The notes under the pieces are model-generated. The model was given only the letters and a program-made list of their open reading frames with translations. It made no database searches and had not been told where the DNA came from. Positions 5,460 to 32,091 of a DNA stretch of 64,000 bases are shown here, one piece after another; within the stretch, counting starts at the first letter, position 1; the number at the start of each line of letters is the position of its first letter. The translations under genes were made by a program, and so were the position numbers. This DNA comes from Verrucomicrobiota bacterium (GTDB taxonomy: Bacteria > Verrucomicrobiota > Verrucomicrobiia > Limisphaerales > SIBE01). The DNA is taken from NCBI GenBank assembly GCA_016209525.1, contig JACQWK010000074.1:2205-66204 (forward strand), in the 5' to 3' direction.

Positions 5460-6482
5460 TTATTGCGAGTATTGGTTGAGTTGGTCCAACAGGGAACGCG
5501 AGGCTTCCTGTTTCGGTGCCGGTTCCGACTGCTGGGGCTTGGACCGATCCGGAACTTCCGGGGAAAGGCCCAGCAGCACCTGCCGCATCCCGTTCGCGCC
5601 TTTCTCTAGTACGCCCACGACTTCTTTCACGTGCCGGGTCACTTCGGCCGCGCGGCGAGACACCGCTCCTCCTTCGGCGACCACACCGGTCTCGCTGCCC
5701 ACGTAGCTGAAAGCCTCCGCCATCTCCTGATAGTCTTGGACGATGAAACCAAGCTTCTCCGCTTGCCGCGCGAGGTCTGCTTCGGAGTTTCGCAGAATCG
5801 CCTCGGCTTCCGTCAACTCGGCGAACGACCACTCGTTGATCTTGAAAGCAACCTTGGTGGCATTGGCCGCACGAAGGGCCTTCTCGATCATCTTGCGCAA
5901 GGGCGCGGGAATTTCCTCGTCGCTGCCGAAACCGAGGTCGCCCGCGACTTGGGCGAGTTCCTTCAAGCCGCTCTGTAAGGCCTCGGTCGTCTGCCGCAAT
6001 TGGCTGCTGTCGTGCTGGCGTGTGGACGTGTAGCCCTGCACGACGCGCAGCCCATTGACAACCTCGCCGTAGGCCGACCGCGTGACTTCCTGTGTGGCCT
6101 CGGCCTTGCGGACGATCTCGTCGCAGCCGCGTTTGCCAGTCGCCGCGGCGGCGGCCATGGCCTGGAGAAGCGTCGCCAAATTCGGATCGGACGGATCGCC
6201 TTGATACGCTTGGATAGCCGGGGCCAGCCGCTGCGCCGCCGATCCCAACTTGCCCAATTCGGCGCTGATTTCCTTCTTGAACTCTTGCAGGACGGCCGAA
6301 TCAGACCTGGCTCGGCTCGCCTGGGCTTCGGGAATTTCGCGCCGACCGAATTCGCCCACTTCACGCCCCTGCTGGGCGAATGCGGTCGAGGCCAGCAACA
6401 GATAGGAAGAAATGAGGAGGGTGGTTTTCATCGAGAGGATATTTTTCATGGGTATTGCTGTCATGTCTGGCTTCGCGTTCAT
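5460..6482 (-). CDS. Secreted long alpha-helical/coiled-coil protein (in-frame starts at 6701, 6482, 6431)
   Basis: Signal peptide MKTTLLISSYLLLASTAFA-Q; Ala/Glu/Gln-rich amphipathic helices throughout. Confidence 0.8.
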   Translation of the reverse strand: MNAKPDMTAIPMKNILSMKTTLLISSYLLLASTAFAQQGREVGEFGRREIPEAQASRARSDSAVLQEFKKEISAELGKLGSAAQRLAPAIQAYQGDPSDPNLATLLQAMAAAAATGKRGCDEIVRKAEATQEVTRSAYGEVVNGLRVVQGYTSTRQHDSSQLRQTTEALQSGLKELAQVAGDLGFGSDEEIPAPLRKMIEKALRAANATKVAFKINEWSFAELTEAEAILRNSEADLARQAEKLGFIVQDYQEMAEAFSYVGSETGVVAEGGAVSRRAAEVTRHVKEVVGVLEKGANGMRQVLLGLSPEVPDRSKPQQSEPAPKQEASRSLLDQLNQYSQ

Positions 6483-6522
6483 GCTTTCAAGGTTGGCCAT
6501 CGGCGCGCGAAACGCACGGTTC

Positions 6523-6540
6523 CGGATATCCGCGGATGTT
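6523..6540 (-). promoter_or_regulatory. Putative operator GAYRTC-N4-GAYRTY, copy 1
   Basis: CGGATATCCGCGGATGTT, 41 nt from ATG 6482. Confidence 0.7.
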
Positions 6541-6741
6541 CGTATTGCAGGTGCTTCCTTCTGATGGGCTGGCACTCCCGCTGCAGGGACACTTTGGAAA
6601 ATCGCGGAATCGTACTGACTCCTCCTGGGATCAAACGAGGCGGAGAATCGGATTCTTACCGGCCACTTCTGCCTGCGGAGAATTCGCACTTTGAGCTTCA
6701 TGGGGTGAAGCTCTCTCGAATCAGCGGAAAAATACAGCGCC

Positions 6742-6759
6742 CGGACCTCAGCAGATATC
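6742..6759 (-). promoter_or_regulatory. Putative operator, copy 2 (degenerate)
   Basis: CGGACCTCAGCAGATATC, 41 nt from ATG 6701. Confidence 0.55.
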
Positions 6760-6782
6760 AGGAACGGTCGGTCCCAATCCGA

Positions 6783-8066
6783 TCAGTCATTGAGCACGCG
6801 GAAGGATGGCAGGCGCCAAGAGCGCTCAGGAGGCTTCCACTGGCTGTGCTTTTTTCGCAACCAACTTCGGAGCGCGCTCAATGCCGTGGACACCTTATGG
6901 CTGTCAATCGCGTTCACCCAGGCGTCCGGTGGAGGGCCTTTGAATTCGTGGTGGATTCGTTCCGCCAATTCCCGAGTCGCTTTGTGACTGATGCGGCTCT
7001 GGTCTGGTTTGACGCCGCAGCTTGCCTTGAATAACTCGGCAGCCATGACGAAGTCGCGGCAATTGTCGTCATTGACCCATCCTTGTTCGTTGGCTTCGAA
7101 TACGAACCGGACAACATCAAAAGCATTGCGGCCCTCGATGTCACAAACAAGAGCGTTCACCCGCACCCGGCAATTGGCTCGGTCGAAGAGAATGACCGCC
7201 TCCGGCGCACTCATGGCGTCGCGCTTAAGCCAGTTGCTGATTGTCCGCACCAAGCCCATGAATCCTCCCGGCACTTCTCCCAGATCTCGAAATCGGTTGA
7301 TCAGCGGGACAAAGGGAATGTCGGCCAGATCGATTCGGGCGTCAGAAGCGCGCACCGGCTGTTTGTCCCTCCCCGCCGTCAATTCCTGAACGGGCTGTTT
7401 GGGGAAGAAGAAGCCCCGACAATCGTCGAATGGACTGTTGACCAACACGTGAGTCACGCGGTCGGTCTCGCGCCCCAACAGGCTCATGCAAGCGTAGAGT
7501 AATGCTCCCATCGTCTTTCGGCCTCCGGCAATCGACGCAATAACGCGAGTGTCCGGATTGCCGACGAAACGCCGGACTTCCTCGAGCATGAAGTCGGCGG
7601 CGGCCACATTCTGTGCCGGGGTGCGCAGGTCGAGTGCAGGAGCCTTGACGCCGGTTGAAGGATCGGGCAGTTCGATGATGCGGCGACTCGGGATTTGCAG
7701 GCGCAAATCCGACGTTGCGGAAGGGCCCAACACGGCCCGGCGGAGTGTCTGCCACACGCTATATTCTCCCCATCCGGGCAGCGGTTTGACGACTCCGTCC
7801 TGCAAATTGAGAAGGTCTCGCTCGATGTCTTCGTTGCCCTTCGTCGTTGTGATCAAGACTACCTCATCAGGAATGATCCTCTCCTGGCCCTCAGGCGGAT
7901 GGGCCAGTCTCCAGATGGTTTCGGTGATGATCGCCGGCGACATGCCGGTAACGGCGAGCAGGACAGTTTGGCTGGGACCGGCACTGAGTGAGCCAGCGGA
8001 TTCAGCGGCGCTGGATGCTGGCTCCTTGGCGCGGGCGCCAGTCTTGGACTTTGATTTTGGTTTCAT
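6783..8066 (-). CDS. NE0113/TIGR02584-family CARF protein (Csx14-like; often annotated as ring nuclease) with C-terminal wHTH-like region
   Basis: LLAVTGMSPAIITET, PDEVVLITT, DLRT..N..AADF, ASIAGGRKTMG, SLLGRETDRVTHVLV signatures. Confidence 0.9.
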   Translation of the reverse strand: MKPKSKSKTGARAKEPASSAAESAGSLSAGPSQTVLLAVTGMSPAIITETIWRLAHPPEGQERIIPDEVVLITTTKGNEDIERDLLNLQDGVVKPLPGWGEYSVWQTLRRAVLGPSATSDLRLQIPSRRIIELPDPSTGVKAPALDLRTPAQNVAAADFMLEEVRRFVGNPDTRVIASIAGGRKTMGALLYACMSLLGRETDRVTHVLVNSPFDDCRGFFFPKQPVQELTAGRDKQPVRASDARIDLADIPFVPLINRFRDLGEVPGGFMGLVRTISNWLKRDAMSAPEAVILFDRANCRVRVNALVCDIEGRNAFDVVRFVFEANEQGWVNDDNCRDFVMAAELFKASCGVKPDQSRISHKATRELAERIHHEFKGPPPDAWVNAIDSHKVSTALSALRSWLRKKHSQWKPPERSWRLPSFRVLND

Positions 8067-8138
8067 CGGATAATGGATAGCAGCGACTGACGGCTGGAGG
8101 CGAATTGAGGATGTCGGTGGATGTCGGCGGCGGCGCAT

Positions 8139-9230
8139 TCAAGATGCATCAAGGAGTTCTTGCAGGCCGGAGTAGAGGGTTTCTTTAGTTAGTACCGGCA
8201 CGCCAAGATCGGCCGCGAATTGCATGACCTCCGCCGGAAGCACGCTCTTGCGGACGAAAACCACCTTCCCCAGCAGACCGCCAGCTCGCTGGACATCAAG
8301 TATGGCCTGCTTTAGCCAGATGTAGTGGGTCGCTTCAGCTTCATTTTCGAGCTGTTGGAGGCTACGAAAAATGGCATCGGCACCGTCACGTTTCTTGTCG
8401 ATGAAGTGGCGCACTTTCGTGAATTTGGCCCGGTGCGTGGTTCGGTCCTTGCAATCCACCAGCCAGAGTTTTCCGCCATAGTTGAAGACCACATCAAAGT
8501 CTGTTTGCTCCTTCGTCGTTCCGGCTTCGCGGATGCCAACGCTGCGATAAACACTCTTCACTCCACGCCACAGAGCGATTGCCGCCACGGCATATTCCAG
8601 CGAATCGCCCCGCTGCGGCTCGGAAGCAGGACGGCGGCGGCTGGTGAAGAAACTATGGGCGTTGGTCAATAGTTGCTTATGGAAGGACTCGGTTGAAACG
8701 TCCTCCCGCAATTGAAGCTTCTCGCCGCGACCGGACAGTTCGGTGTGGGACATCTGGCAAAGGAGCAGGTCCAAGGCATCCAGCTTGTCGGCAATGTGGC
8801 CGTCGATTTTTTCGGAGGAAGTCGTCAGATCCCGATTCTCAACCTTGAACCAAAACAACCGATTGCCTCGCTCCAGATAACAGGCAGGAACTTTGTTGCG
8901 GATGGCGTCCAGAAAGGCGCCAGTCGCCATCAATTTGTTGCCGCCGGTGAAGTGGGTGAGCCAGGAGGCGTCCTTTGCCTTCCCGCGGATTTCACGGCAA
9001 ATGCTCTCCACTTGGCGCATGTCATCGTGCGGAATTCGAACCGTCTGGATAGAGCTGCCGCTCAACAAGCCGGATTTGATAAAGAAATCTCTGAGGCGCC
9101 GGGCCGGTTTTTCAGATTCCTCCGCTTCGGAACTGTGCAAGAGAATCAAGCGTTCCGGTCGCAAGTGACTCACCACGAGCACATGCGGCCATACTTGTTT
9201 GGAAGCTAACGAAAGAAGAGTGGAGGGCAT
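8139..9230 (-). CDS. Card1/Can2-like CARF + PD-(D/E)xK nuclease (DUF1887)
   Basis: SLASKQVWP, HFTGGNKLMA CARF motifs; GDSLEYAV...DFDVV...LVDCK nuclease motifs. Confidence 0.85.
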   Translation of the reverse strand: MPSTLLSLASKQVWPHVLVVSHLRPERLILLHSSEAEESEKPARRLRDFFIKSGLLSGSSIQTVRIPHDDMRQVESICREIRGKAKDASWLTHFTGGNKLMATGAFLDAIRNKVPACYLERGNRLFWFKVENRDLTTSSEKIDGHIADKLDALDLLLCQMSHTELSGRGEKLQLREDVSTESFHKQLLTNAHSFFTSRRRPASEPQRGDSLEYAVAAIALWRGVKSVYRSVGIREAGTTKEQTDFDVVFNYGGKLWLVDCKDRTTHRAKFTKVRHFIDKKRDGADAIFRSLQQLENEAEATHYIWLKQAILDVQRAGGLLGKVVFVRKSVLPAEVMQFAADLGVPVLTKETLYSGLQELLDAS

Positions 9231-10755: not shown

Positions 10756-11559
10756 TCAGAGAGGTTGCCACGCACCGAGATCGTTCCAGCGCTGGGGAGA
10801 GGGTTTGGACTTCAAAGCAGCTTCGGCAGCGGTCAACTGTTGTTTCGACGGAGCGAGGACAAGGAGACAAGACCCGGGGTTGAGTTCGACGACTTTGAAC
10901 CGGACAGGGGACGGACGGCGCGGTTGCGCTTGGCCGAATAATTGCGCCGGGCCTTGTGGAGTGTCGGAAGCAGTCTCTCGCAACGCCGTCGCGGTCTTTG
11001 CGGCGGGCTTGCCGGCGAGGGCGGCGGCCCAAGGATTTCCAGGTTTTTTGAGAAGAGGAGCGAGGAGTCCTGACAGCTCGTCTCGCGATCTTGGAGTCCA
11101 CGATTCAAGCGGCCAGACACTGCCGGCGGCGCGGCTGGAGCGATAGCCCAGCGTTCCGGCAAGGATCCATATTCTTGTGGCGGTGAGAGCCTGCTGCCAA
11201 TCATCGTTCGAGCATGCCGGAAGCCTTTGCAATTGGATGGAAGCGGTGGCTCCCGGCGGCAGGGCCGGGCGGCTGGCTCCGTGAGTTTTGTGCGGCAGCA
11301 GCGGCGCATCGCGGCGGCTCGGCGGGAGGCTCTCCCCGATTCTGATGGCCACTCGGCTGCCCTGGCCTTCGTCGCCATCGGTGCTGCCCCAGACGCGGTT
11401 GGCGGACTCGACTCCGAACGTGGCCCGATGCCAAAAACGAATGTGACCGCGAACGGGAGGAACGCGCAGTTCGCTGGTCTTGGCCTCCTTGCCCTCGGCG
11501 CCGCCGCTGAAACAGGCCGTCAGGAAGGTGAAATGAAACGTTTCAGTCCGAAGGTTCAT
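10756..11559 (-). CDS. cmr1: Type III-B RAMP Cmr1 (operon B, short form)
   Basis: FLTACFSGGA..ELRVPPVRGHIRFWHR, VWGST, GTLGYRSSRAAGS Gly loop. Confidence 0.9.
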   Translation of the reverse strand: MNLRTETFHFTFLTACFSGGAEGKEAKTSELRVPPVRGHIRFWHRATFGVESANRVWGSTDGDEGQGSRVAIRIGESLPPSRRDAPLLPHKTHGASRPALPPGATASIQLQRLPACSNDDWQQALTATRIWILAGTLGYRSSRAAGSVWPLESWTPRSRDELSGLLAPLLKKPGNPWAAALAGKPAAKTATALRETASDTPQGPAQLFGQAQPRRPSPVRFKVVELNPGSCLLVLAPSKQQLTAAEAALKSKPSPQRWNDLGAWQPL

Positions 11560-12689
11560 TTTGGATACCAGGGTTGGTCTCGGAGCTTGCGGTAGGCTTT
11601 TCCTGTTGTGTCGCGTTTGAATCGCTCGAACCAGGCGGCGTTCTCCGGTTTCCGCAGCTTTTCCAGCTCTTTTTGAAGCGCGGTCCAGTGGCCCGGATTA
11701 TCCGCCAGACGCAGAACGCTACTCTTGTAAGTTGCTTCGTTGGGATAATCGGATTTCAAAGCCGCTTGCGCCACCGCTTCCTGCTCGGCCTTCGCCTTCG
11801 CCGCGCTTTCTCGGTCGGCAGCGGCTTTGGCTTCGGCTTCGGCTTGTTGCGCCTGATGAGTGAGCCGGGCGCGATCGGAATCGGTCAATTGGCGGAAGCG
11901 GCCGTAGCCACCGGACGTTTTGGCGCCGATGCCGAGTTGGGTCAGGGCTTCAGTCAACCACGCGGTCGTGGCCGAAATCAGTTTCAGATAGTCCGCGACC
12001 CCGGTTCGGACGAAATAGGCGAACCGCCAAACCCCGCCGGGTTCGACACAAAGGAAGGCGTTGGGGGTCAGACGCTCGTTGGCCTGGCCGGCAGCGTCGT
12101 GATGCGGATTGACGATGTCCAGGCCGAGCGTTGGCGGTTGGACCGGAAAGCCGCCAAGGAATATGACTTCGCCAGCGCATTCCGAGCCGTCACGGGCGTT
12201 ATCGCCGAAAACCCGGCGCGCCCACTTTGAATTGAACTCGGCTCGGAACTCCAAGAAATCTGTCGCTTGATTGAAGGAACCTTCGGGGCGCTGGTTAGCC
12301 TCCCAGCAAGCCCACGTGCTCACAACACCTTTGAGCGCGGTACCGGGGATAAGCGGCAGGCCGGTGGTGCGGTCGGCGTAGAGGCCGACGTTTTCCAGCA
12401 CGTTGGCGCGCCCCAAGTGGATGAGGAGTTTGCTTTCCAGGACCAACTCAACAGTATTGAAGCGGTTGCCGTGCTGGTCCTGCAAGGCTTGAAGCAGGCG
12501 CTGGCGGGAGCGGCAAACGCCGAGAAGACGCGCAGAACATTTTTCATAGGTTGCCAGAACGCTCTTAAGGGAGTCCGTTTTGCTGGACGCTTCGCCTCCG
12601 CGCTCGAAACTCAGCTTATCCAGGCGCAGGTGCCAGGCGTCACACACACGGGCGAGGGCGCTGGCTACAGGTTGGGTGACAGCAAGCAT
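11556..12689 (-). CDS. cmr6: Type III-B RAMP Cmr6 (operon B)
   Basis: LENVGL...GLPLIPGTALKG, LDIVNPHH, LGIGAKTSGGYGRF. Confidence 0.95.
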   Translation of the reverse strand: MLAVTQPVASALARVCDAWHLRLDKLSFERGGEASSKTDSLKSVLATYEKCSARLLGVCRSRQRLLQALQDQHGNRFNTVELVLESKLLIHLGRANVLENVGLYADRTTGLPLIPGTALKGVVSTWACWEANQRPEGSFNQATDFLEFRAEFNSKWARRVFGDNARDGSECAGEVIFLGGFPVQPPTLGLDIVNPHHDAAGQANERLTPNAFLCVEPGGVWRFAYFVRTGVADYLKLISATTAWLTEALTQLGIGAKTSGGYGRFRQLTDSDRARLTHQAQQAEAEAKAAADRESAAKAKAEQEAVAQAALKSDYPNEATYKSSVLRLADNPGHWTALQKELEKLRKPENAAWFERFKRDTTGKAYRKLRDQPWYPK

Positions 12690-12692
12690 GGT

Positions 12693-13064
12693 TCAGGCAA
12701 CGAAACGTTTGAGGTAGTTGAGGAACGCGATGGCTTCGGCCGTCGCACGCCGGAGTTGTGAGTCGTCGTTGGCCCGCGCCAACTCGTCCACCAACGCGTC
12801 GGGCTCGTCTGCTTCAGCGATGGCCACGCCTTCGGACGACAAGTGCTCGGCAATGGCTTGCGCGATGAGAAAGCAACCGGGTTGTTTGCGCCCGCCGCCG
12901 GGCTTGCGTTCGACGGCGAATGCAAGCGCAGGGAGCAGCCCATCGGATTTGATGAGCATGGGAAAGCCGCTCAAAGCGTTGCCCCCCTGTTGTCCGAGCC
13001 CCATGCCATCCCGGTGGGCGCTGGTCAGGGCGTTGGCTGCGCGAATCTGTGAAAGGCTTTTCAT
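12693..13064 (-). CDS. cmr5: Type III-B small subunit Cmr5 (operon B)
   Basis: LSQIRAANA, PMLIKSDGL..ALAF, ATAEAIAFLNYLKRF. Confidence 0.95.
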   Translation of the reverse strand: MKSLSQIRAANALTSAHRDGMGLGQQGGNALSGFPMLIKSDGLLPALAFAVERKPGGGRKQPGCFLIAQAIAEHLSSEGVAIAEADEPDALVDELARANDDSQLRRATAEAIAFLNYLKRFVA

Positions 13065-13987
13065 GTCAATTCCTCCCGTTTGGCTTCGCAGAAACCGTGG
13101 CCGGTCGTTTCGTCGCCGCCGATCTGGAGGATGGGGGGCGGCTTGGTTGAAAGCAGCTTTGCCAACCGGTCGTTTGCGTCAAAGGTTGCGGGAAGGCCGT
13201 TGCGGCGCGGCGGCAGCACGGTCAAAACGCTATAGAAGAGTGCTTCGCAAGGCACGTTTTCCTGGTTGAAGAGCGCGCCACTGTCCACCGTTCTGGTCTG
13301 CGAACTGACTTTGATACGCGCAACGACCTCGGTGCAGGTCGTGACGAAGTGCTGAAAGTTCTCGTCATTGAGCACGGCGAGGCGTTGGCCGAGCGATTCG
13401 GTCCAAAGCGGGTCCAGACAGAGCGTGCCCAGGGCGTCAGCCACACTTTTGGCCTTGGCCGAATCGCCGGGCAGCGTGGCCAGAGCGTATTCTTCCAGCA
13501 CGACCCGGGCTTGGCCGGGGATGGTTAATGCACAGGCGCCGGGAACGGCCAGCTTGTCTTTGGCAGGGCACGGCAAATCGAACTTACGCTCGGTGTCACG
13601 CTGGAACCGTTCCAGCACGGCAGGGCAGGTTATCCAAGCGAAACAGCCAGCGAGCGAGCGGACCGGAAAGGCGAGAATCTTGGCCTCCATGATCTGGACG
13701 CAGCCGGCGTGAGCTTTGATTCCTTTCTTTTCATCCAGATCACGATCCTCGCCGAACAAGGTGCGGATATCTTCTTCGGTCAAGATTTTCGATCCGTCGG
13801 GCTTGCATGCGTCTCGGCCCCATTGGCGCAGCACTCCTTTGAGGCTGGTGTTCGGGATGACCGGGAAGCCGGTGATGCGTTCGCGCATGATGGGCAGGTC
13901 CACCACATCGACCGAGGTGCCGCTGCCCACGTGCAACGGCGTGCGCGTGTAGAGGGTGAGGAGGTGTCGTTTCACGTTGTTTGTCAT
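13061..13987 (-). CDS. cmr4: Type III-B RAMP Cmr4 (operon B)
   Basis: TPLHVGSG...VDLPIMRE (catalytic Asp present), LAFPVRS, GALFNQE, QIGGDETTGHG. Confidence 0.97.
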   Translation of the reverse strand: MTNNVKRHLLTLYTRTPLHVGSGTSVDVVDLPIMRERITGFPVIPNTSLKGVLRQWGRDACKPDGSKILTEEDIRTLFGEDRDLDEKKGIKAHAGCVQIMEAKILAFPVRSLAGCFAWITCPAVLERFQRDTERKFDLPCPAKDKLAVPGACALTIPGQARVVLEEYALATLPGDSAKAKSVADALGTLCLDPLWTESLGQRLAVLNDENFQHFVTTCTEVVARIKVSSQTRTVDSGALFNQENVPCEALFYSVLTVLPPRRNGLPATFDANDRLAKLLSTKPPPILQIGGDETTGHGFCEAKREELT

Positions 13988-14027
13988 GGGTTGGTTTTAG
14001 GGATTAGCGAGTTCGCTGGCCATCGTT

Positions 14028-14045
14028 CGGACGTCCGGGGACGTG
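14028..14045 (-). promoter_or_regulatory. Putative operator, copy 3
   Basis: CGGACGTCCGGGGACGTG, 41 nt from cmr4-B ATG 13987. Confidence 0.75.
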
Positions 14046-14047
14046 TT

Positions 14048-14927: not shown

Positions 14928-14965
14928 GATAGGCTGCTCATCCGATCGTTTCCTGTTGTTGTGAT

Positions 14966-20997: not shown

Positions 20998-21002
20998 GCG
21001 AC

Positions 21003-21168: not shown

Positions 21169-21189
21169 TTTCGATGTTATACGAAGGTC

Positions 21190-23189: not shown

Positions 23190-24757
23190 GGTGCCTTGGG
23201 TGGGGCGACGCGAGGGAATTTCGCGGCGAGGTTGGCAATGGCTTTGGCAATCTTGGATTTTGAATTTGCCCGGTCAGCGGCGAAGAGGTCCGGTGCGGTA
23301 ACAAGCAAGAAGTGAAAGAGCGTGAACTGAAATCGCTCGTCCTGCTGCGCCCAGAATCTCTCTTCGGTGGCAAAGGGGTTGATCTGACCTCGGAGGTCCG
23401 GCTCTTTCATGGCACCGAGTTTTTCTATCAGAGCGAGATCCGGTTGGAGAGTCGCGCGGGCAGCCTCGCGGTCGGCCTTTTCCTTCGCTTGGCGGGCTTT
23501 CTCTGCCCGCGCTTCCTTCTCGGCGTCTTGAAGAGCGCGCATGGCATCGGTCACATCGGCAAACCATCCGTAGCCGGCGTTGGTTTTGGCACCGAGGCCG
23601 AAGGTTTCGAGGCCAGTCTTCAGCCACTGGCGGGCAAGCTGGACCAGCTTCGCGTCTCCACCGCGCAGCGGCGCAAGCGCGAAAGCGAAGATGTGGCCGG
23701 GCGCGACGGCGGGGAAGACGTTTGGTACCGGCTCCTCAATATCGGGAGCGGTGCTCCACTTGCGATTCCATTCCTCCCACTCATGCGGTTTCTTGTTCCG
23801 GTCCGGTTCATTGTAATATGCCTGGTGGTGAACCGTGACAACGTCGAGTTCGAGTTTGCCGAGCTCGGGCGGATCGAGCGGCAGGCCCTTCACCCCCTTC
23901 ACATCCACCGAGCAGGCGGGCAGGAAGGAGACGGAGCCGCCGAAGTTCGGAAGCGCCTTCCAAGGGGTCGGTTGTTTCTCCTTCGGAACCTTCCATCCGA
24001 ACTCGGAGCAAAGTTTTTCCGCTGCGACTCGCCAGATATCGGTCGGATTACCGCTGCACGCCCACGCGAAATCGGACTCGTCCTTCCAATCCTGTTCACA
24101 CCAGCCGAAGACGCAGGCGATGGCGGCGAGCATTTCAGCGGGAGTGCTGAATGGTTCGCAGGCGGCCTTGAAGAGGTTGTCTTTGTCCTGCTCCGTTGCG
24201 CCGGGTTTCTGGCCGGATTCGCACCACTCGCGCAGGGCGGCCAACGCGCCGCGCCGGGCGCAACCTTTCACTGCGCTGCCGGGGATGTAAGGCAGGCCGA
24301 AGCGGTCCAAGCACAGGCCGGCGTTTTCCATCACCCCGCCGGTCATGTTGACCATGAGACGGGATTGGAGTTGGGCGTAGAGCAAGCCGGCATCTGCAAT
24401 TGAACTGAGGAGGGCTTGGTGGCTGGACACAGGCTTGAGGGCTTCGGCAGGGCCGATGTCGGCAGTCCGTCGTGCCAGGGGCGCAGTGTCCTCCAGGAAT
24501 TCCTCGAATTTCTGCCGCTCCTCCGGTTTTCGCGCTGTGTTGCGTTCTTTCTCCCAAGTGGCTCGAAGTTTCAAGAGAAACTCAAAGCGGCCCGCCTTGA
24601 ACGAATCCTCGCACACCCGGGCGAAGTGCAGTCGGCGTGCTTCGTCCATTTTTGGATGGTCGTAAACAAAGCGGTCGAGCAGCAGCGAACGGCTGTCGAA
24701 CTTCTCAGCAGACGCTCGAAAGAGCGCGCCAGTGTCGTTGGGCATGAGGGTCGGCAT
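23186..24757 (-). CDS. cmr6: Type III-B RAMP Cmr6 (operon A)
   Basis: ENAGLCLDRFGLPYIPGSAVKG, LDVVTVHH..YY, GLGAKTNAGYGWF. Confidence 0.95.
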   Translation of the reverse strand: MPTLMPNDTGALFRASAEKFDSRSLLLDRFVYDHPKMDEARRLHFARVCEDSFKAGRFEFLLKLRATWEKERNTARKPEERQKFEEFLEDTAPLARRTADIGPAEALKPVSSHQALLSSIADAGLLYAQLQSRLMVNMTGGVMENAGLCLDRFGLPYIPGSAVKGCARRGALAALREWCESGQKPGATEQDKDNLFKAACEPFSTPAEMLAAIACVFGWCEQDWKDESDFAWACSGNPTDIWRVAAEKLCSEFGWKVPKEKQPTPWKALPNFGGSVSFLPACSVDVKGVKGLPLDPPELGKLELDVVTVHHQAYYNEPDRNKKPHEWEEWNRKWSTAPDIEEPVPNVFPAVAPGHIFAFALAPLRGGDAKLVQLARQWLKTGLETFGLGAKTNAGYGWFADVTDAMRALQDAEKEARAEKARQAKEKADREAARATLQPDLALIEKLGAMKEPDLRGQINPFATEERFWAQQDERFQFTLFHFLLVTAPDLFAADRANSKSKIAKAIANLAAKFPRVAPPKAP

Positions 24758-24760
24758 GGC

Positions 24761-25150
24761 TTACCCCTCCGAATTGCTTTTCTCTTTTGTGGTGAATCGC
24801 TTCACGTAGCCGATGAAAACCAAAGCTTCCGCAGTGGCGCGTTGCAGGCGGTTGGAATTGGCCCCGGGGTCGTTCCGGTCTGAGAGTTGGCGGATCAACA
24901 TGTCGCTGTCCGTGACCCCTGGAAGAATACCGATTTCGGGTGACGCCAAGTGCCCGGCCACACCGTTCAGCACGGCCTGCATGGCGGGGCGTTTGGCCTG
25001 TCGCCTTTCGTTCTTCTCGTTGGCGAATGCCGTGGTGGCCAAAAGGCCGTTGGCGATGATCATCGCCGGCAGCTTGTTGACATCCGCCTTCGTTGTGCGT
25101 TCGGCCACCAGCAAAGCGTTTGCCGCCCGGATTTGTTCGAGGTTTTCCAT
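24761..25150 (-). CDS. cmr5: Type III-B small subunit Cmr5 (operon A)
   Basis: NLEQIRAANA, LPAMIIANGL, ATAEALVFIGYVKRF. Confidence 0.95.
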   Translation of the reverse strand: MENLEQIRAANALLVAERTTKADVNKLPAMIIANGLLATTAFANEKNERRQAKRPAMQAVLNGVAGHLASPEIGILPGVTDSDMLIRQLSDRNDPGANSNRLQRATAEALVFIGYVKRFTTKEKSNSEG

Positions 25151-25154
25151 AGGT

Positions 25155-25544
25155 TTACCAGAGGCTTTTGAGGTTGGGGTATTGCCGAATGCGATCGTCG
25201 GGTGTCACGAGCGTGAGAGCATGCTCCATCGCCGTTGCTATTAATATTCGGTCGAAGGGGTCCTTGTGGATTGGGGATAATTCCGTGGATCGTGCTGCCA
25301 ACCGGCTATCGAGAGGCAACTCTACCAGGCCATTCCATCGGCAGACTTCGGGAAACCACTCGCTGACGGGATTGGGAAGTTGCAATTTGCCCTTGGCGAC
25401 CTTGATCCCAAGCTCCCAAGCTGAGACAGGGGAGACGTGGATAACCGAACCGGGTTCGGAGAGAACGCGCCGGACGGACTGTGGCATCTGGTCCGGATCG
25501 TCCGCCAGCCAGAGCAAGGTGCAAGTGTCCAACAAGCAGTTCAT
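25155..25544 (-). CDS. vapC: PIN-domain toxin VapC
   Basis: LLDTCTLLW, SAWEL..K, HKDPFDRILIA, LVTPD. Confidence 0.92.
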   Translation of the reverse strand: MNCLLDTCTLLWLADDPDQMPQSVRRVLSEPGSVIHVSPVSAWELGIKVAKGKLQLPNPVSEWFPEVCRWNGLVELPLDSRLAARSTELSPIHKDPFDRILIATAMEHALTLVTPDDRIRQYPNLKSLW

Positions 25545-25783
25545 CGGTATTCGGAGGGCCACTCGTCTTCCGACAGAGGTTCGGTTGGATCGTAGTTGAT
25601 GGCGATGGGCTTGAGGTCCGGATTTGGTTTTAATCTGTCGATTTTTGCCCGGGGCGTGGTGGCCTTAAGCTCTGCCACCGGTTTCCCTTCGCGGCAAATC
25701 AACACGGTTTCCCCCGTTTCTTCGACCGCGGCCAACAGTTTCGGGAAGCTGGCCGCGGCTTCCTCAACATTTACGGTTGTCAT
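25541..25783 (-). CDS. Phd/YefM-family antitoxin
   Basis: VNVEEA...LL..VE.GETVLICREGKPVAEL; ATGA overlap with PIN gene. Confidence 0.9.
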   Translation of the reverse strand: MTTVNVEEAAASFPKLLAAVEETGETVLICREGKPVAELKATTPRAKIDRLKPNPDLKPIAINYDPTEPLSEDEWPSEYR

Positions 25784-25789
25784 AGGCCA

Positions 25790-26806
25790 TCAAGATTGCG
25801 GCGATTTGGCATTCGAGCAAGGCGCTTTCAGCAGGACCGTGCAATAGCCGAGGCCGGTGGAGGCGTCGCCGCCGAATTGGAAGACCTTGCGGTCGGCCGC
25901 CTTTCCGCCGAAAGCCTCGATCGCCTTGGCGGCATCGCGGCGCTGGTCCTTGGCCTTGTCCGCTGTGCGCTCGTCGAAAGCGTGGATCAAAGAGTAGAAG
26001 AACGTTTCGCTTGGCACGTTCTCCTGATTGAAGAGCGCGCCGCCCTCCGCCGTGCCGGTCTCGTCGCTGATGCGGACGTGTTGAGCGACCGCGCAGGCGT
26101 TCTGCGCAAAAAAACTCATCATGCCGTTGCTGACGATGACAAGGTGGTCTTTTACTTCAGCCCACACCAAATCTCCTGACAGCAGGTCAGACATTCTTTT
26201 TCCAAGCTCCGCCAGTCCCTGCCAGTTGGAATGCTTGAACGTGTATTCCTCCAGCACGATCTGCCCGCTCAAGTCCAGCTTGCTGGCGCTGCCGGCGTCA
26301 AAAATCGCTTGCTCGTCCTTTGGCTCCGGCAAGCCTTGAATCAGAGCCGATGCGAGAACTCCATCACGCACGGCCCGTTGTAACATCAGCGGACACGTAA
26401 TCCAGGCAAAGCTGCCTTTTGCTGAGCGGATGGGAAAGGCCAGGAGGCGCGCTTCAGAGAACTGAAGTGAGCCGGCAAAAGCATGGCTGGCGTTGTCCGA
26501 TCCGAACAGCCAAGCTGCTTCAGCTACCTGGTCGATTACCTCTTCGTTCTTCTCGTTCTTTCTTGTCGTCACGCGCAGGTAACGCTTGCCGTTCTGTTCG
26601 TGAAGTCCTTCGTTCCACGCATCAGCGAACGTGCCTTTCAGGCTGGTAGCGGGGATAATCGGAAATCCGGTGTGACGTTCGCGTTGGATGGGCTGGTCAA
26701 TCGCACCGACGCTGGCGCCGGCGCCGACGTGGAGCGGGGTGCGGGTGAACAGGTAGAGAATTTTCGATTTCTGATTTCTGATTTCTGATTTGGATTCCGT
26801 GTTCAT
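25790..26806 (-). CDS. cmr4: Type III-B RAMP Cmr4 (operon A)
   Basis: TPLHVGAG..IDQPIQRERHTGFP, LAFPIRS, GALFNQE, QFGGDASTGLG. Confidence 0.97.
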   Translation of the reverse strand: MNTESKSEIRNQKSKILYLFTRTPLHVGAGASVGAIDQPIQRERHTGFPIIPATSLKGTFADAWNEGLHEQNGKRYLRVTTRKNEKNEEVIDQVAEAAWLFGSDNASHAFAGSLQFSEARLLAFPIRSAKGSFAWITCPLMLQRAVRDGVLASALIQGLPEPKDEQAIFDAGSASKLDLSGQIVLEEYTFKHSNWQGLAELGKRMSDLLSGDLVWAEVKDHLVIVSNGMMSFFAQNACAVAQHVRISDETGTAEGGALFNQENVPSETFFYSLIHAFDERTADKAKDQRRDAAKAIEAFGGKAADRKVFQFGGDASTGLGYCTVLLKAPCSNAKSPQS

Positions 26807-26846
26807 GGGTTCAGTCTCCTTCGTTGTTGAAAGTTTGTCGCGTTTG

Positions 26847-26864
26847 CGGACGTCGGCGGACGTT
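26847..26864 (-). promoter_or_regulatory. Putative operator, copy 5
   Basis: CGGACGTCGGCGGACGTT, 41 nt from cmr4-A ATG 26806. Confidence 0.7.
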
Positions 26865-26983
26865 CTCGAAAGCGGAGTGCGGACTTGCAGAACGCGGAGT
26901 TGGCTGGCGGTCGAGAGTTGAGAGCCAGGGCCTTGGATGAAGGCCTGCGGGAGGAGCGGGCTGACTCACCGCCAAAATGACGA

Positions 26984-28459
26984 TCATTCGCCATAAAACC
27001 TCCAGGTTCCGCAGACCCCCAGCCCGTAGCCCTTCTCGCCCAGCAGCGTGCTGCGGCGGTTTTGGATTTTGCTCCCGTCACCGCTGCCGTGCCAGTTGAG
27101 AGCGTTGGCGAGCGCAAGGGCATGCGCGGGGCCGCCGTCTTTGTCCGGCTCGGCCTCGAAGTAATACACCGCTCCGGCGGACACGGCGAGGTGAGTGGAT
27201 TTAGCGCCCGATGGGATTTCCGATTTTTGATTTTCAGATTTGGATTCGGCGAGCGACCAACCGGTGACAATTATGGGTTTGGGGACGATGGCGGCGACAA
27301 GGCGGGCGGGGATTGTTGAACCGGGAGCGCCTCCCTTGCGTTTGGCTTTGCGAAGGCCGCTACCGGTGGTCAGCAGTACTTGACCGCCGCGCTCGTCAAA
27401 GCGCGCCTCGCGTTTTTCGCTGTCCCAGTTCACGAAAACCCAGTTGGGCAACCAGCCGCCGGGATGTGGGTTTTGCGGTGAACCGTCCTTCTTCGCGGGG
27501 GGAATCTCCGGCCAGAGTGCGGGCGTCAGGAGCGCCCATTTCACCGGGAACTTGCCGTTGGGCAGTGGTTTGAAATCAACGGCGGCATGCAACCCCTTGG
27601 GGAGCGGCAACGGTTGCGGGGCGTTGCGACGGTGCGCCGTGCAGAGCCGTTGTTGGCCGCCGACGATGATGTTTTGCGGCTGGCCGTTGAGCAGGGTCTG
27701 GAGGAGGTCGCTATTGTGTTGTTTGAATTCCTTGTCCATCGCTTCAGCAAACAGACCGAGCCGGAATTCCTCGCGCAGACGGAGGTAATGGGCGGAGTAG
27801 AAGTTGGTTTTGTCCTGCGTCTGGGTTTCGGGGTCGATGCCGATGCCGATGGCGTACTCTGTGTCGGCAATGTCGGTGTCGCGCAGGAAGTGATCGCCGG
27901 GTTTGTCGGGCTTGAGGTCATCAGAGCCCCGCAGGAAAGAGTTGAACGCATCGGTGGAAATCCACGACTCGCCGCCAGCGTCCTTGGCGGGCGGCCGGCT
28001 GTTGGCCACTGCATACTTGGGCGGCGTGGCAAGGCTGGAGGTCTGCCAAGGTTGTTCAACCCCGGGCAGGGAGATGACCGGGCACAGGGTGACGGCGACG
28101 CTGCCGTTGAGTTGAGCGTCCTTCGGGCGGGGGAAGAACCAAGTCGCCTTGCCTCCTTTTTCGCGCACCGGAAAAGGGCCGGCAGTGAGAAGGGAGCCGA
28201 ACAGTCTCCCGTGTTTCGCTCGGTTTTCATCCGAGTGGTCGCGTTTGTCCGAGGACCGACCGGGGGCATGCCGGTGCAGCTTCACGCCGGTTTCTTGCTC
28301 AAGGCCGGCGCGATGCAACGCGGCGTGGAGCGCGTGGTTGGTGACGTCCGGCAACGGCCAGGCAGCGGTATGGCCAGCGAGCGAACCGCTCATTGGGCGG
28401 CCATCGCGGAAGAACAGCACGTCGGTGGGTTGAAGAAGAATTTGATGCAGGTTGTTCAT
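26984..28459 (-). CDS. cmr3: Type III-B Cmr3 (operon A)
   Basis: PTDVLFFRDGRP, VGGQQR, LLTPA, AVSAGAVYYF, GEKGYGLG. Confidence 0.95.
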   Translation of the reverse strand: MNNLHQILLQPTDVLFFRDGRPMSGSLAGHTAAWPLPDVTNHALHAALHRAGLEQETGVKLHRHAPGRSSDKRDHSDENRAKHGRLFGSLLTAGPFPVREKGGKATWFFPRPKDAQLNGSVAVTLCPVISLPGVEQPWQTSSLATPPKYAVANSRPPAKDAGGESWISTDAFNSFLRGSDDLKPDKPGDHFLRDTDIADTEYAIGIGIDPETQTQDKTNFYSAHYLRLREEFRLGLFAEAMDKEFKQHNSDLLQTLLNGQPQNIIVGGQQRLCTAHRRNAPQPLPLPKGLHAAVDFKPLPNGKFPVKWALLTPALWPEIPPAKKDGSPQNPHPGGWLPNWVFVNWDSEKREARFDERGGQVLLTTGSGLRKAKRKGGAPGSTIPARLVAAIVPKPIIVTGWSLAESKSENQKSEIPSGAKSTHLAVSAGAVYYFEAEPDKDGGPAHALALANALNWHGSGDGSKIQNRRSTLLGEKGYGLGVCGTWRFYGE

Positions 28460-31400
28460 GGCGTCGCGAGTTGCCTTTCGGCAGCGGGTTGAGTTTCGAA
28501 TGTTTCGTTTGGAGTTTCGGGTTTCTCCTCAGACAGATTGCGTGCGATGAAGGCGGCGGTCTGGCAAAGGCCGATGAGGGCCTGAATCGGGTCTTCGGTT
28601 CGCTGCCGATCAAGCTGCCTGCGCGTGCTTTCCACCTGGCTCTTGAGCCACTTCGCGTCCGCATCCGGCAAGCCCTGCAGTGATTCAGCTTCATCCAGCA
28701 GATCCCGGAGTTCCCCTTCGCGGTCTTGCTCGGAGACGACTTTAGCCTCGCCGAGTTCCTTCAGTTTCTTGGTCATTTGAGCGGTTACCGCCAATTTCGC
28801 GAGCCGAACTTCGAGCCGCTCGCAAAGATTCGCGGCCAAAGCAACGGCGGCGCGCTGGATTACGTGGTTCAGGTAGCGATCTATTGAAACTTGATTGGAA
28901 GACCCGTTCCGAGGCTCCGCGAGTTCCTTCAGCTTGGCATGCTCGTCTTTCATATCCTTCTGCTTCTGCCGCTCGACAGCATGGCGGAACTCACGGCGGA
29001 CGATGTCCACGACGGGGAAGTCCTTCACGGGTTCAAGGCTTTTGGCGGCAAGCGGGCTGGTCTCGGTGAGATAGGCACCGAGCAACTCGACCACGCGATG
29101 GGGGAACTTGTTGCTGACCGCGCCAGCGCCGATGGCCTCGAGGATAGCACCGTGAATCTCCAGGCCGCCGCTGTCCCACTGGCAGCCCCATTCGATAGTT
29201 TCGCCACTGCGTTTCATGAGCGTGACGGCTACGGCGCTGCGGCCCAGTTCGTTCTTGGCGCGTTTCTCGGCGCGTTGCGCTTCGCGCACGACGTCCTGGA
29301 GCGGCGACTTGAAATGGGCGATGGCGATCCCGACGGAGCAGTCGGCGGCAGAGCCGGGGACAAGGAAGGGAAAGCGCACCGGTTCATCGAGCAGGCCGGC
29401 TTCGGCACCCGATCCTTTTGGCGCGGCCTGTTCTGTCAGCTTGATGAAGCCGGGATGTTCGACAGCGAACAGAGGCGTCTTGCCGTCCGACTTCCATTCC
29501 TCGCGATTCCGCGGCCCGCGGTTCACGATGCCCTTGGCAAGCTCGGACAGACGTGGTTCGCCTTTGAAGGCAGCCCGCAGCGCACGGGCGCAGGCCAGCG
29601 CGGTGTCTGCCGGAAGCATCGCCAGCACATCGTCGCCGCCGGAATAAATGAGACAGCCATCGTGGGCTTCGACAATGGGCCGGGCGCAGTGTAGGCCGAA
29701 GTTGGCGAGGAGTTCGGAGAACTGGAGATGAAACGAGGGCGAAAGCGGACGGCGTCCCTTGAGGAATTCCGCGTTGCCGTGCCGGGTGAAGTAAGCGTGA
29801 GCTTCACGCGAAAGCTGTCCGGCCACCTCCGGGCACTTCGCGCCGGATATCCACTTGCCCACCTCGTCGCCATCCAGGGCAAGCACGGCAAAGTATTTGC
29901 CCTCATCCTCACTGCCGGATTCGTCGTCTGCTGACAAGGCGAACGGCTGATGTGCAGCGATGGAGCGCGTATTCGGCATGGCGAAGTCGCCCTCGTTGGG
30001 GAAAAAGGCGTGTTCCTTGGACAACCACGTGAGGTGCCAAAGGCGCTTAAGCAGCGTGGAGGCTCCGAGCAGGTCGCGGGGTTTGAAAGCGTTTTCGTTG
30101 CCATCGGCTAACCGGCGGGAGATATTCTTGGCTTCGTTTTGGTCCGTCGGCACTTCCAGACAGGCTTCTTCTTTGCCGTTGAGCGAGTCTTTGTTCTGCC
30201 ACCGGTCCACCCGCCAGCCGCCGTCGCTCCAAGCCAAAAAGCTGCGCGTGGTCTTCGCCGCGTCCAATTGCCAAGAAACCAGGGCGAACAAGGCGGACCA
30301 GGCATTGGAAACTTGCGAAAGCGGCCCGGCTTTGTCTGGGGAGCCGAGTTGCTGGTCTCTGAAGCACCACGGGTCCCGGTGTTCAGGCCGCATGCGGTCC
30401 AGCATGGCGAGCACACCGCGCAACGGATCGAGCGGGTGCTCTCGCTCTTCCCCCGGCAGGCGCGCCGTGGATTCGATTGCGCTTTTGATTGATTCCGGCC
30501 ACGGCAGAACCTGCCAGTGGACTTCGAGCAGTTTTTCCAACTGAGCCCTAAAGCGCGCAATATCGACGCTGCCCGGCACCTTGTCAGCACAATGCTCGGC
30601 CACCGAATCCCCGATTCGGCGTAATTGCGCACGGACTTCGGATTCGAGGTGCGCAGCGTAGCGCGCGGCTCCCGTGCGCCCCACGCTGTCCGGCGTCTGC
30701 CATTGAGGATGCTCGGCCATCGTCGCGGGCAACAGCGCAAGAACGCGATTCGGCAGGCTGGGCGTCAGCAGCCGTTCCCTCTCTCGCTGGTCGTAGTAAC
30801 CGAAGGCCCGCCAGAGTTCCGTCCCGTCCGCCGCTTTGTGGTGATCCCAAAGCTCCCGGCGCAAGAGGAGGTCCAGAATCGGCTGGTTGGCCAGGTTTGG
30901 GAACAGGACGTGATCCGGCCCGAAATCCAGAGCGATCCGGGCGAGCGCGGTGCCGATGAGATAGCTCAACAGATAGGAACCGCTCCACAGGTCCCGGGTG
31001 CTGCGCGCAGCGGCGATGAGCTCCTGCACCGGCCCGATGGTAAAGAGCAGGAACGCGGGTCGGTCAGGTGGAGGCTGGGGCCTTTGGCCTTTGCTCCTGG
31101 CGTCCAGCCAGTCCTTCAAACTGCCGCCAAGACAGCCTTGGAATGCGCTGGTGACGGCCAAGTGGTTCCAAATGGTGTGATCTGGAAGGCGCGTCTCCGC
31201 CGGCAGGCAGGAAAACCGTTCGTCCGCTGCCGAAGCCCAGTTCTGCCAGAAACGCCAGGCACAGATGAACGCGGCCCGCGGGTCATCATCCGTGATGAGT
31301 GGCCGTGATTTCTGCGAAATCTCCAATGCGGCCGTTGGCGAGGCAAACGGCTGGAGAAAGTGGATTGACGTCATCCCCAATGGGTGGCGGAGAGCGTTGT

Positions 31401-31650
31401 CCGTGGCGTCGAATTCCGAGCGGCAGAGCACCGTATCGCCGAGTTTTGTCTTGGGCCATGGCAGCCGGTCGGCGGCTGAGGCGGCGATGTCGGCCGACTT
31501 GCGGGTGGTTTCTTCCGGATGAAAACCTTCGGCTTGCGCCAGTGACCTGGCTCGGTCCTCATGGTCCACGATGCTGATAACTTTGTCAGGGCTGTCGTGA
31601 AGATAGGCGCTGAGTTTGCGGCGCCAATAGGTTGGATTATCGAGGCTCAT
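28456..31650 (-). CDS. cas10: Type III-B Cas10/Cmr2 (operon A)
   Basis: KLSAYLHDSP, PAETRLPDHT, IGPVQELIAAARSTRDLWSGSYLLS, ALDGDEVG, YSGGDD. Confidence 0.97.
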   Translation of the reverse strand: MSLDNPTYWRRKLSAYLHDSPDKVISIVDHEDRARSLAQAEGFHPEETTRKSADIAASAADRLPWPKTKLGDTVLCRSEFDATDNALRHPLGMTSIHFLQPFASPTAALEISQKSRPLITDDDPRAAFICAWRFWQNWASAADERFSCLPAETRLPDHTIWNHLAVTSAFQGCLGGSLKDWLDARSKGQRPQPPPDRPAFLLFTIGPVQELIAAARSTRDLWSGSYLLSYLIGTALARIALDFGPDHVLFPNLANQPILDLLLRRELWDHHKAADGTELWRAFGYYDQRERERLLTPSLPNRVLALLPATMAEHPQWQTPDSVGRTGAARYAAHLESEVRAQLRRIGDSVAEHCADKVPGSVDIARFRAQLEKLLEVHWQVLPWPESIKSAIESTARLPGEEREHPLDPLRGVLAMLDRMRPEHRDPWCFRDQQLGSPDKAGPLSQVSNAWSALFALVSWQLDAAKTTRSFLAWSDGGWRVDRWQNKDSLNGKEEACLEVPTDQNEAKNISRRLADGNENAFKPRDLLGASTLLKRLWHLTWLSKEHAFFPNEGDFAMPNTRSIAAHQPFALSADDESGSEDEGKYFAVLALDGDEVGKWISGAKCPEVAGQLSREAHAYFTRHGNAEFLKGRRPLSPSFHLQFSELLANFGLHCARPIVEAHDGCLIYSGGDDVLAMLPADTALACARALRAAFKGEPRLSELAKGIVNRGPRNREEWKSDGKTPLFAVEHPGFIKLTEQAAPKGSGAEAGLLDEPVRFPFLVPGSAADCSVGIAIAHFKSPLQDVVREAQRAEKRAKNELGRSAVAVTLMKRSGETIEWGCQWDSGGLEIHGAILEAIGAGAVSNKFPHRVVELLGAYLTETSPLAAKSLEPVKDFPVVDIVRREFRHAVERQKQKDMKDEHAKLKELAEPRNGSSNQVSIDRYLNHVIQRAAVALAANLCERLEVRLAKLAVTAQMTKKLKELGEAKVVSEQDREGELRDLLDEAESLQGLPDADAKWLKSQVESTRRQLDRQRTEDPIQALIGLCQTAAFIARNLSEEKPETPNETFETQPAAERQLATP

Positions 31651-31659
31651 GGGTGGTGG

Positions 31660-31842
31660 TCAGCAAAGTGAATCGGCAATGGCAGCAGCGAGAATTGCAT
31701 TGGCGAAGACCCGGGATTCTTGCTTGGCGAATCCGCCTGTCTGCATGGCGCGCTCGATGGGTTGGTCATGCGTGGCGAGGTGCGCGCACTTGCTCGGCGG
31801 GTCGTGCAAGAAGGCGAGGAGTTTGCGTTGCCAGAGGTTCAT
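31660..31842 (-). pseudogene. 60-aa N-terminal remnant of a third cas10
   Basis: MNLWQRKLLAFLHDPPSK is nearly identical to cas10-B LWKRKLLAFLHDPPHK, also at DNA level. Confidence 0.85.
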
Positions 31843-31940
31843 TCGGGATTTATGAGTTCTGATTTATGATTTCTGGATTTCGACGTCCGAATTCTGATTC
31901 TTGGGGAGAATAGGCGGGAGAGGGCGCGAGCGCCAAAGTT

Positions 31941-32091
31941 CGGACGTCCGGGGACGTCGGATCAGGCTTGGCGTTGGGCGGTTCTCGGGCACGGATTCCT
32001 TTTGGCTACGGTCGAGAAGCGTAAGGCGCGCAGCAGCCCAAGCAACGGAAAGTTATTGGATGTTGTTCACCGGCTTTTCACAGGTCACTCC
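31941..32091 (-). promoter_or_regulatory. Conserved cas10 leader, copy A (operator copy 6 at 31941-31958)
   Basis: Near-identical to 19202-19354; downstream sense TTGGCG-N18-TATTCT. Confidence 0.8.

Follow-up and report, generated by a model that had tools for sequence, protein, structure and literature searches.

Based on sequence analysis of a 64,000-nucleotide stretch of a Verrucomicrobiota genome (contig JACQWK010000074.1; hereafter the window) and comparisons to other genomes, we describe a palindromic operator word of 20 bases, GGAYRTCC-N2-GGAYRTCC, located at seven predicted promoters of a type III-B CRISPR locus. On balance, we favour the view that the word is a conserved operator specific to type III systems, at which a protein composed of a CARF domain and a winged helix would act as a self-amplifying activator sensing cyclic tetra-adenylate (cA4). 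P0001, a protein of the NE0113 family encoded in the locus, is likely the binder of the word, and would probably activate rather than repress.

The seven sites, all on the minus strand, are as follows, with bit scores from a symmetric matrix trained on other genomes.

Operator 1, 31941..31960, minus strand: 25.1 bits; TATTCT at 31912-31907; predicted start at 31900; serves the Cmr-A operon.
Operator 2, 26847..26866, minus strand: 21.4 bits; GAGACT at 26818-26813; ATG of cmr4-A at 26806.
Operator 3, 19202..19221, minus strand: 25.1 bits; TAGGGT at 19173-19168; ATG of cas10-B at 19161.
Operator 4, 14028..14047, minus strand: 18.9 bits; TAAAAC at 13999-13994; ATG of cmr4-B at 13987.
Operator 5, 8108..8127, minus strand: 17.4 bits; TATCCA at 8079-8074; ATG of the CARF-winged-helix gene at 8066.
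Operator 6, 6742..6761, minus strand: 14.5 bits, the weakest; GAGCTT at 6713-6708; ATG at 6701, in frame with 6482.
Operator 7, 6523..6542, minus strand: 22.7 bits; AACCTT at 6494-6489; ATG at 6482.

Six of the sites had been reported in an initial annotation of this DNA as 18-mers at 6523, 6742, 14028, 19202, 26847 and 31941, five of them 41 nucleotides from a minus-strand ATG (6482, 6701, 13987, 19161 and 26806), and the words, the spacings and the hexamers before the starts (AACCTT, GAGCTT, TAAAAC, TAGGGT, GAGACT and TATTCT, letter for letter) are all present as described. The accompanying consensus, CG-GAYRTC-N4-GAYRTY, is exact in four of the six sites but not in the other two, as 6742 carries GACCTC and 14028 ends in GACGTG. 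The chance of an ATG at one offset for five of six sites is 1.2e-9, or 1.2e-7 allowing 100 offsets. The seventh site (8108-8127), overlooked earlier, precedes the 427-aa CARF gene at 6783-8066 and is followed by TATCCA at the same spacing, with the ATG at 8066 one base further away than in the other copies; close homologues of the CARF protein begin at the same place. With this operator before the regulator's own gene, autoregulation is predicted. Operator 6 directly follows the stop codon of the regulator gene, and a site at the equivalent place recurs in other loci. Operator 1 has no ATG at +1 and is followed by a 58-nucleotide leader of simple repeats, a 60-aa remnant of a Cas10 N-terminus and then cas10-A. 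As had been cautioned, an AAGGAG sequence resembling a Shine-Dalgarno element is present at cmr4-A, where it overlaps the GAGACT hexamer; it may serve read-through transcripts, with both initiation routes possible. The sites at 19202 and 31941 both adjoin a 128-nucleotide duplication (87% identical), and the seven sites are thus not fully independent. Within the same study, contigs of another DNA sample cover the sites at 6523, 6742, 8108 and 14028 with the letters unchanged.

A first scan of the 10.09-Mb assembly, using a matrix built from the six window sites reported earlier, places these at ranks 1-4, 7 and 8, a result that is partly circular, and brings out the seventh site. With the symmetric matrix, 24 matches reach at least 15 bits, and the four of at least 21 bits all lie in the window locus. 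Outside this locus the word stays at background level (3.6 per Mb outside the contig). The two best matches elsewhere in the genome were rejected, one on contig C689 lying antisense inside an open reading frame (ORF) and one on C552 having no -10 box. The initial 2.4 kb of the contig, which hold the reverse transcriptase (RT) gene, cas1, cas2 and the array, show no operator directly before any of these (best 7.5 bits), and none above 10.3 bits was found at the arrays on contigs C325, C341 and C461 or at the leader, RT and cas1 of the window contig; the array on C341 has a similar repeat end.

Around homologues of the CARF protein in other genomes, 195 strand-hits of at least 15 bits were detected in 173 loci (1.80 Mb), versus the background of 3.6 per Mb. 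Among hits of at least 11 bits in these loci, an ATG peaks at offset 40 (64 of 504, other offsets 2-22) and the -10-like pattern YANNNT at offset 28 (74 hits). The same positional bias relative to starts appears in 50 unseen sites from later-fetched loci, of which 23 have the ATG at offset 40 (others 0-7) and 18 have YANNNT at offset 28 (others 0-8). According to a cross-genome logo of 54 sites, the word spans -60..-41 of sigma-70-like promoters that are mostly leaderless by prediction, in which A occupies -11 in 45 cases, T occupies -7 in 37, G occupies -33 in 40 and C occupies -1 in 46. A -10 hexamer ending 6 nucleotides upstream of the ATG corresponds to leaderless sigma-70 geometry, which also peaks modestly genome-wide (67 of 3214 at -12, versus 0-51 at other offsets), and at most sites of the Planctomycetota-Verrucomicrobiota-Chlamydiota (PVC) group transcription is predicted to begin with the ATG or close to it. 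For the window, the starts predicted are 31900, 26806, 19161, 13987, 8067, 6701 and 6482. The proposal of a dimeric site centred near -50, ahead of a -10 box and a weak -35, agrees with both the logo and the held-out offsets. A short frame (MKFELAA-like) often opens the predicted transcript right after the regulator (L003:2790, L008, L015, L016 and L055) and recurs whatever gene comes next, possibly as a conserved leader peptide or RNA.

The perfectly palindromic consensus, in a genome that holds many short inverted repeats, might also be read as an RNA hairpin, a terminator or a repetitive extragenic palindromic-like repeat. The variable dinucleotides of 226 unique sites, however, change as direct repeats (CA/CA 15, TG/TG 11, TA/TA 8, GG/GG 3, CC/CC 3), with pairs that would keep a hairpin being rarer (CA/TG 9, TG/CA 2), which argues for a DNA site. 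In conjunction with a terminator scan of positions 1-11000, which calls none of the three sites there, and with the phasing of the word to a -10 box and its confinement to one locus, this leaves the RNA or repeat reading scarcely credible.

The genes behind 232 sites, redundant loci included, comprise cmr4 (44), the CARF regulator gene (27), cas10 (26) and cas1 (12), followed by a protein of about 130 aa (11), DUF2130 (9), a Card1/Can2-like effector (8) and viperin (4), where DUF2130 and prokaryotic viperin (pVip) are confirmed and the other names are by inspection. The viperin gene stands directly behind the operator in the leaderless position at L032:13479-14429, and also in L028, L063 and L105, which suggests that antiviral genes other than Cas genes join the regulon. 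The protein of about 130 aa, with 11 operator sites (L142, L077, L087, L088, L094 and others), has an N-terminal GNSFP motif, and one homologue gave no Pfam or PADLOC match; it is a candidate ring nuclease.

Across 151 genomes of the order, the combined operator and -10 pattern yields 31 matches, of which 21 fall at loci with Cas10 or PF09623 and 10 lie elsewhere, versus 6 for the reversed control, and it is present in 14 of 27 genomes with PF09623 versus 9 of 124 without. This distribution points to a type III-specific regulon rather than a global one, and the interpretation put forward in the initial annotation, a CRISPR regulon, is supported; a global, SOS-like regulon was ruled out, as matches outside type III loci are near control level. 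Of 24 genomes with PF09623, 21 have a promoter-phased site in the Cas10 regions, as do 2 of the 7 without it. In one single-contig genome (G140), three phased sites lie at the Cas10 locus, at a distance of 1.3 Mb from the CARF gene, as would suit a trans-acting factor. Only 8 sites lie within 350 nucleotides of any of 84 arrays in other loci, with their direction not resolved.

Proteobacterial-type loci carry a different palindrome, GGCAAGCTTGCC (also written CAAGCTTG), at a similar fixed promoter position, and this word precedes the regulator gene as well. Blind dyad discovery recovered the window word in PVC loci and GGCAAGCTTGCC in the proteobacterial loci (p 3e-44, 14 of 23 loci), with YANNNT 27 nucleotides downstream of the latter in 42 of 131 oriented reads. 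The 29 proteobacterial-type loci contain 47 matches of GGCAAGCTTGCC and none of the window word, and 130 other loci contain 174 matches of the window word and 16 of GGCAAGCTTGCC (about 10 expected by chance), the own-clade counts being made with matrices trained on those same loci. Of 16 new loci of one order, counted after exclusion of one fragment and of two loci already touched by the discovery set, 11 have the proteobacterial word. Within 20-kb regions of one proteobacterial order, between 2 and 6 sites are present in all 10 genomes whose regulator is of the canonical clade, versus none of 5 with divergent regulators and none of 5 without a regulator. In a FastTree tree, subject to a long-branch warning, 24 of 25 proteobacterial-word rows fall on one branch of 30 rows; since kin share labels in the tree, this is no proof of co-evolution of operator and regulator. 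A genome-wide count of the proteobacterial word was not used as evidence, the pattern being too loose (155 of 301 genomes match), and the motif-negative loci revealed no convincing third operator class. In one genus (L188, L190) the operator takes a variant form whose two halves both contain GAGGTC, which may be co-variation of regulator and operator on a finer scale. In a single case, G074, only the winged-helix end of the regulator gene is kept and no site of at least 14 bits is present; there, a 500-aa ORF (L180:2224-4600), TIR-SAVED-like by inspection, replaces the CARF half.

The candidate regulator has the following architecture.

6783..8066, minus strand: P0001, 427 aa, with a CARF domain (about residues 33-260) and an OmpR/PhoB-like winged helix (about residues 289-421).

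P0001 falls within NE0113/TIGR02584 (TIGR02584 192.1 bits, cut-off 80.65; PF09623 86.4, cut-off 23), and its predicted structure has a predicted local distance difference test (pLDDT) score of 91.4. The CARF domain has its closest fold matches in Cad1 (Z 14.9) and in the ring nuclease Sso2081 with bound cA4 (Z 14.3, root-mean-square deviation (rmsd) 2.1), and Foldseek with the full model returned CARF matches only. Residues 289-421 superpose on the DNA-binding domain of VanR (129-219) with a middling Z of 6.0 (rmsd 3.4, 88 residues), and form a winged helix with an N-terminal beta-sheet as in the OmpR/PhoB fold. Searching with a profile built from 56 C-terminal domains places OmpR/PhoB-family regulators at the top (PrrA at 1.7e-4, then ArlR and PhoP). 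In the structure Atlas the domain reaches a TM-score of 0.51, below the naming bar, and folded alone from a single sequence it gives an unusable model (pLDDT 46.6). Members of the PVC type and of the proteobacterial type have different predicted recognition helices. Across 67 sequences, the CARF-domain motif G181-G182-R183-K184 never varies and S43 hardly does, an equivalence to Crn1 being suggested by motif position; a count of 121 of 121 for GGRK is circular, as those loci were fetched with that peptide. The combination of a CARF domain with a winged helix at the C-terminus, without an enzymatic effector domain, is that of the Csa3 transcription factors. For another protein, P0003, the annotation of a close homologue includes an HD domain (PF13328) at the N-terminus, possibly a fusion or a gene-calling artefact.

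Several observations weigh against a P0001-type regulator reading the word. No regulator was detectable by Pfam or profile search in G002 and G121, two genomes of 96% completeness that each carry two phased sites; in both, the contig breaks off on the flank of the locus that normally holds the regulator gene. In a third, G015, the three sites are unphased and a regulator was likewise not found, and 3 of the 24 genomes with a regulator have no site of at least 14 bits near the region taken. Of the no-regulator controls, four have a different, short-Cas10 and cmr1-first layout and two have no cmr gene in the region. Regulator clade is moreover confounded with host phylum and with locus layout and lineage, and the own-clade cross counts come from matrices trained on the same loci. 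Pfam Trans_reg_C (PF00486) does not match the C-terminal domain of P0001 and matches only 6 of 56 family members at E<=0.1 (best 0.0072), and the NCBIfam name of the family is 'CRISPR-associated ring nuclease Csm6' (PADLOC CARF5). On the same side stand passages of two papers: PMC8699464 describes near-exact co-occurrence of the Csa3a gene and its palindrome, yet nonspecific and cA4-independent binding in vitro, and PMC8643638 judges the winged helix-turn-helix (wHTH) of the CARF-wHTH ring nuclease Sis0811 to be structural.

Some of these points would fit a different factor encoded by the host, such as a WYL or a two-component regulator in each phylum, that reads the word with the NE0113 gene as one more target. 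Besides the two genomes with phased sites and no regulator found, operator class tracks phylum as well as regulator clade, and the search for other DNA binders, in which no other family stood out by inspection among gene clusters of 92 motif-positive loci, was not an exhaustive helix-turn-helix scan of every ORF. However, sites of such a factor should also turn up away from CRISPR loci, where counts are close to the control (10 versus 6); the second word tracks regulator clade inside one order, and G074, with the winged-helix end only, is without a site. We consider a host factor improbable.

As the binder, P0001 would dock to the operator as a dimer beside the weak -35 and recruit sigma-70 polymerase, activation being suggested by the fixed phase of the site and its position directly against a weak -35. 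The same protein could instead be a repressor that blocks the UP-element region and is released by cA4. Autoregulation and a palindrome are equally compatible with this, the site at -60..-41 coincides with the promoter region bound by the RNA polymerase alpha subunit, and Csa3b acts as a repressor. However, the operator never overlaps the -35, the -10 or +1, its phase is held within about one base in both operator classes while the -35 boxes are poor, and OmpR/PhoB-type domains mostly activate from such a position, making repression unlikely.

The trigger of activation by P0001 would presumably be cA4 made by Cas10, in a positive loop where target recognition leads via cA4 to more Cmr complexes, effectors, adaptation genes and regulator. 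The operator before the regulator's own gene would provide positive feedback, and the Crn1-like Ser and Lys residues might slowly destroy the ligand, with its decay limiting the loop. Alternatively, binding and activation may occur without cyclic oligoadenylate (cOA), or cA4 may switch them off, in a constitutive or negative-feedback setting with the CARF domain mainly a ring nuclease. This would match the closest CARF folds, Cad1 and the ring nuclease Sso2081, the conserved Ser-Pro and GGRK motifs, and the affinity of Csa3a, which according to passages of PMC8699464 is not raised by cA4. Effectors, Cmr genes and prokaryotic viperin among the targets instead fit induction on alarm, and cA4 binding rotates the wHTH pair of Sis0811 in the passages of PMC8643638 concerned, so coupling is structurally possible; we assign the cOA-independent setting a low probability.

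The locus runs along the minus strand from Cmr-A (31650-21840) and Cmr-B (19161-10756) to the CARF effector, the regulator, an envelope operon and the RT gene. Going by what its closest named homologues are called, the assembly is of verrucomicrobial type.

31660..31842, minus strand: 60-aa ORF resembling a Cas10 N-terminus, after the 58-nucleotide leader of short simple repeats.
28456..31650, minus strand: cas10/cmr2-A, GGDD cyclase motif intact.
21840..28459, minus strand: cmr3, cmr4, a PIN gene, cmr5, cmr6 and cmr1 of module A.
16342..19161, minus strand: cas10/cmr2-B, GGDD cyclase motif intact.
10756..16387, minus strand: cmr3, a Y1 transposase-like ORF, cmr4, cmr5, cmr6 and cmr1 of module B.
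8139..9230, minus strand: CARF-PD-(D/E)xK effector, Card1/Can2-like (CARF4--CARF_PDDEXK, 3.5e-16).
1..1400, minus strand: reverse transcriptase (RVT_1), running past the window.

Beyond the window, the RT gene is followed by cas1-like and cas2-like genes, named by inspection, and by a CRISPR array at the contig end. The 60-aa ORF is probably the remnant of an earlier cas10 start; it resembles cas10-B more than cas10-A, and the leader and remnant at 31660-31900 suggest that the original cas10 was replaced. The Y1 transposase-like ORF (14004-15392) lies between cmr3-B and the cmr4-B operator. Small gene pairs (19348-20020 and 32228-33064), one gene of which matches DUF6036, a nucleotidyltransferase, precede both cas10 promoters and end in the 128-nucleotide duplicated stretch, possibly as toxin-antitoxin-like modules that moved with the promoter. 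Two truncated CARF-type frames lie between the Cmr modules (20020-21168), of which 20192-20497 clusters with CARF-HEPN proteins and 20713-21168 begins like a Card1-type gene. No cas6 was found among the ORFs scanned in 1-34000, the rest of the genome not having been searched for it.

Operators 6 and 7 precede the envelope operon, which is composed as follows.

1541..6482, minus strand: orphan envelope operon, beginning with a signal-peptide coiled-coil protein (5460-6482) and then a small lipoprotein-like ORF.
4732-5235 and 3957-4724, minus strand: middle genes, the latter a MotA/TolQ/ExbB-like channel.
3511-3999, minus strand: ORF considered ExbD-like from its position and anchor.
2508-3509, minus strand: anchored protein; small membrane proteins complete the operon.

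The protein of 3957-4724 has a MotA/TolQ/ExbB-like fold (TM-score 0.62). The link of the word to this membrane operon, claimed in the initial annotation, is real in the window locus but was not found in other genomes: searches of 258 loci, 200 genomes of the class and a protein collection (near lengths only) gave no homologues of the operon proteins, and a conserved link was rejected on this ground. The slot behind the regulator gene holds cas1, DUF2130 or viperin in other genomes, and the envelope operon looks like local cargo behind a promoter that commonly follows the regulator gene. Co-transcription from the envelope operon through to RT-cas1-cas2 is possible.

Taking these data together, we tentatively suggest that the NE0113 family, widespread in bacteria, could be a built-in, cA4-sensing transcription switch of type III systems with clade-specific operators, timing the response by destruction of its signal. 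With the same reserve, such a switch might activate, besides its own gene and cas1, the Cmr/Csm genes, effectors and captured cargo such as viperin and the ExbB-like envelope module. The means by which bacteria step up type III CRISPR expression during infection are largely an open question, and for a prediction made in 2014 the analysis supplies a named protein, two operators, an exact promoter geometry and a target list. If correct, the two operator-regulator pairs would represent orthogonal, ready-made genetic cOA sensors, with possible use as a cOA reporter, and the common annotation 'ring nuclease Csm6' would need correcting. The genes behind the operator also offer a route to new defence genes.

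That prediction, in the passages of PMC4012209 (2014) concerned, holds that NE0113 and Csa3 proteins regulate transcription directly. In the literature searched, which took in few subscription papers and left supplements and the 2020 CARF classification outside its scope, we found no operator, regulon, sign or ligand for the NE0113 family; the 2020 classification or its supplements may describe the family. The known label of the family, of which P0001 is a member, implies a nuclease only, whereas a regulator role with an operator is proposed here. Where passages of PMC12409355 and PMC8284326 discuss the related Csx14/Crn1 proteins, these are treated as ring nucleases, and a 'ring nuclease Csm6' gene is mentioned in a type III-B cluster, without being studied, in the passages of PMC12825302. 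A type III locus with a cyclase-competent Cas10, as expected for the NE0113 family, is present, with GGDD in both Cas10s. P0001 resembles the Crn1 ring nucleases in fold (Sso2081 Z 14.3; Sso1393/Sis0811 Z 10.3) and in what appears to be a similar placement of the Ser and Lys motifs. In contrast to P0001, Sso2081 has no wHTH, and that of Sis0811 is MarR-like according to the relevant passages of PMC8643638. With the OmpR/PhoB activators (PrrA, PhoP, ArlR and VanR), P0001 shares the winged helix, the N-terminal beta-sheet and half-sites with a 10-bp period beside the -35, but it differs in having a CARF input instead of a phosphorylated receiver, a long helical insert and weak sequence similarity.

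The closest counterpart is Csa3a with its palindrome CAPPa (TCCC-N8-GGGA) in the Sulfolobales, likewise a CARF-winged-helix protein with a promoter palindrome that is confined to CRISPR loci and co-occurs with its gene, and for which passages of PMC8699464 and PMC8284326 propose cA4 feedback. Archaeal Csa3 is given as the only characterised cOA-responsive regulator in passages of PMC9704534 (2022), which call its regulation complex. Csa3a, however, is archaeal, belongs to type I-A loci, acts at promoters with TATA and transcription factor B recognition elements (BRE) and has 212 aa (6wxq, Z 11.3), whereas the P0001 system is bacterial, with sigma-70-like promoters, an OmpR/PhoB-like helix domain and an unrelated operator, and its targets are the type III interference genes themselves. 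No Csa3 model is among the PADLOC and NCBIfam matches of the locus, which is type III-B, and its operator and promoter elements differ from a CAPPa-type palindrome beside BRE/TATA. Judged on these features, P0001 would work like Csa3a-CAPPa, yet is not a Csa3.

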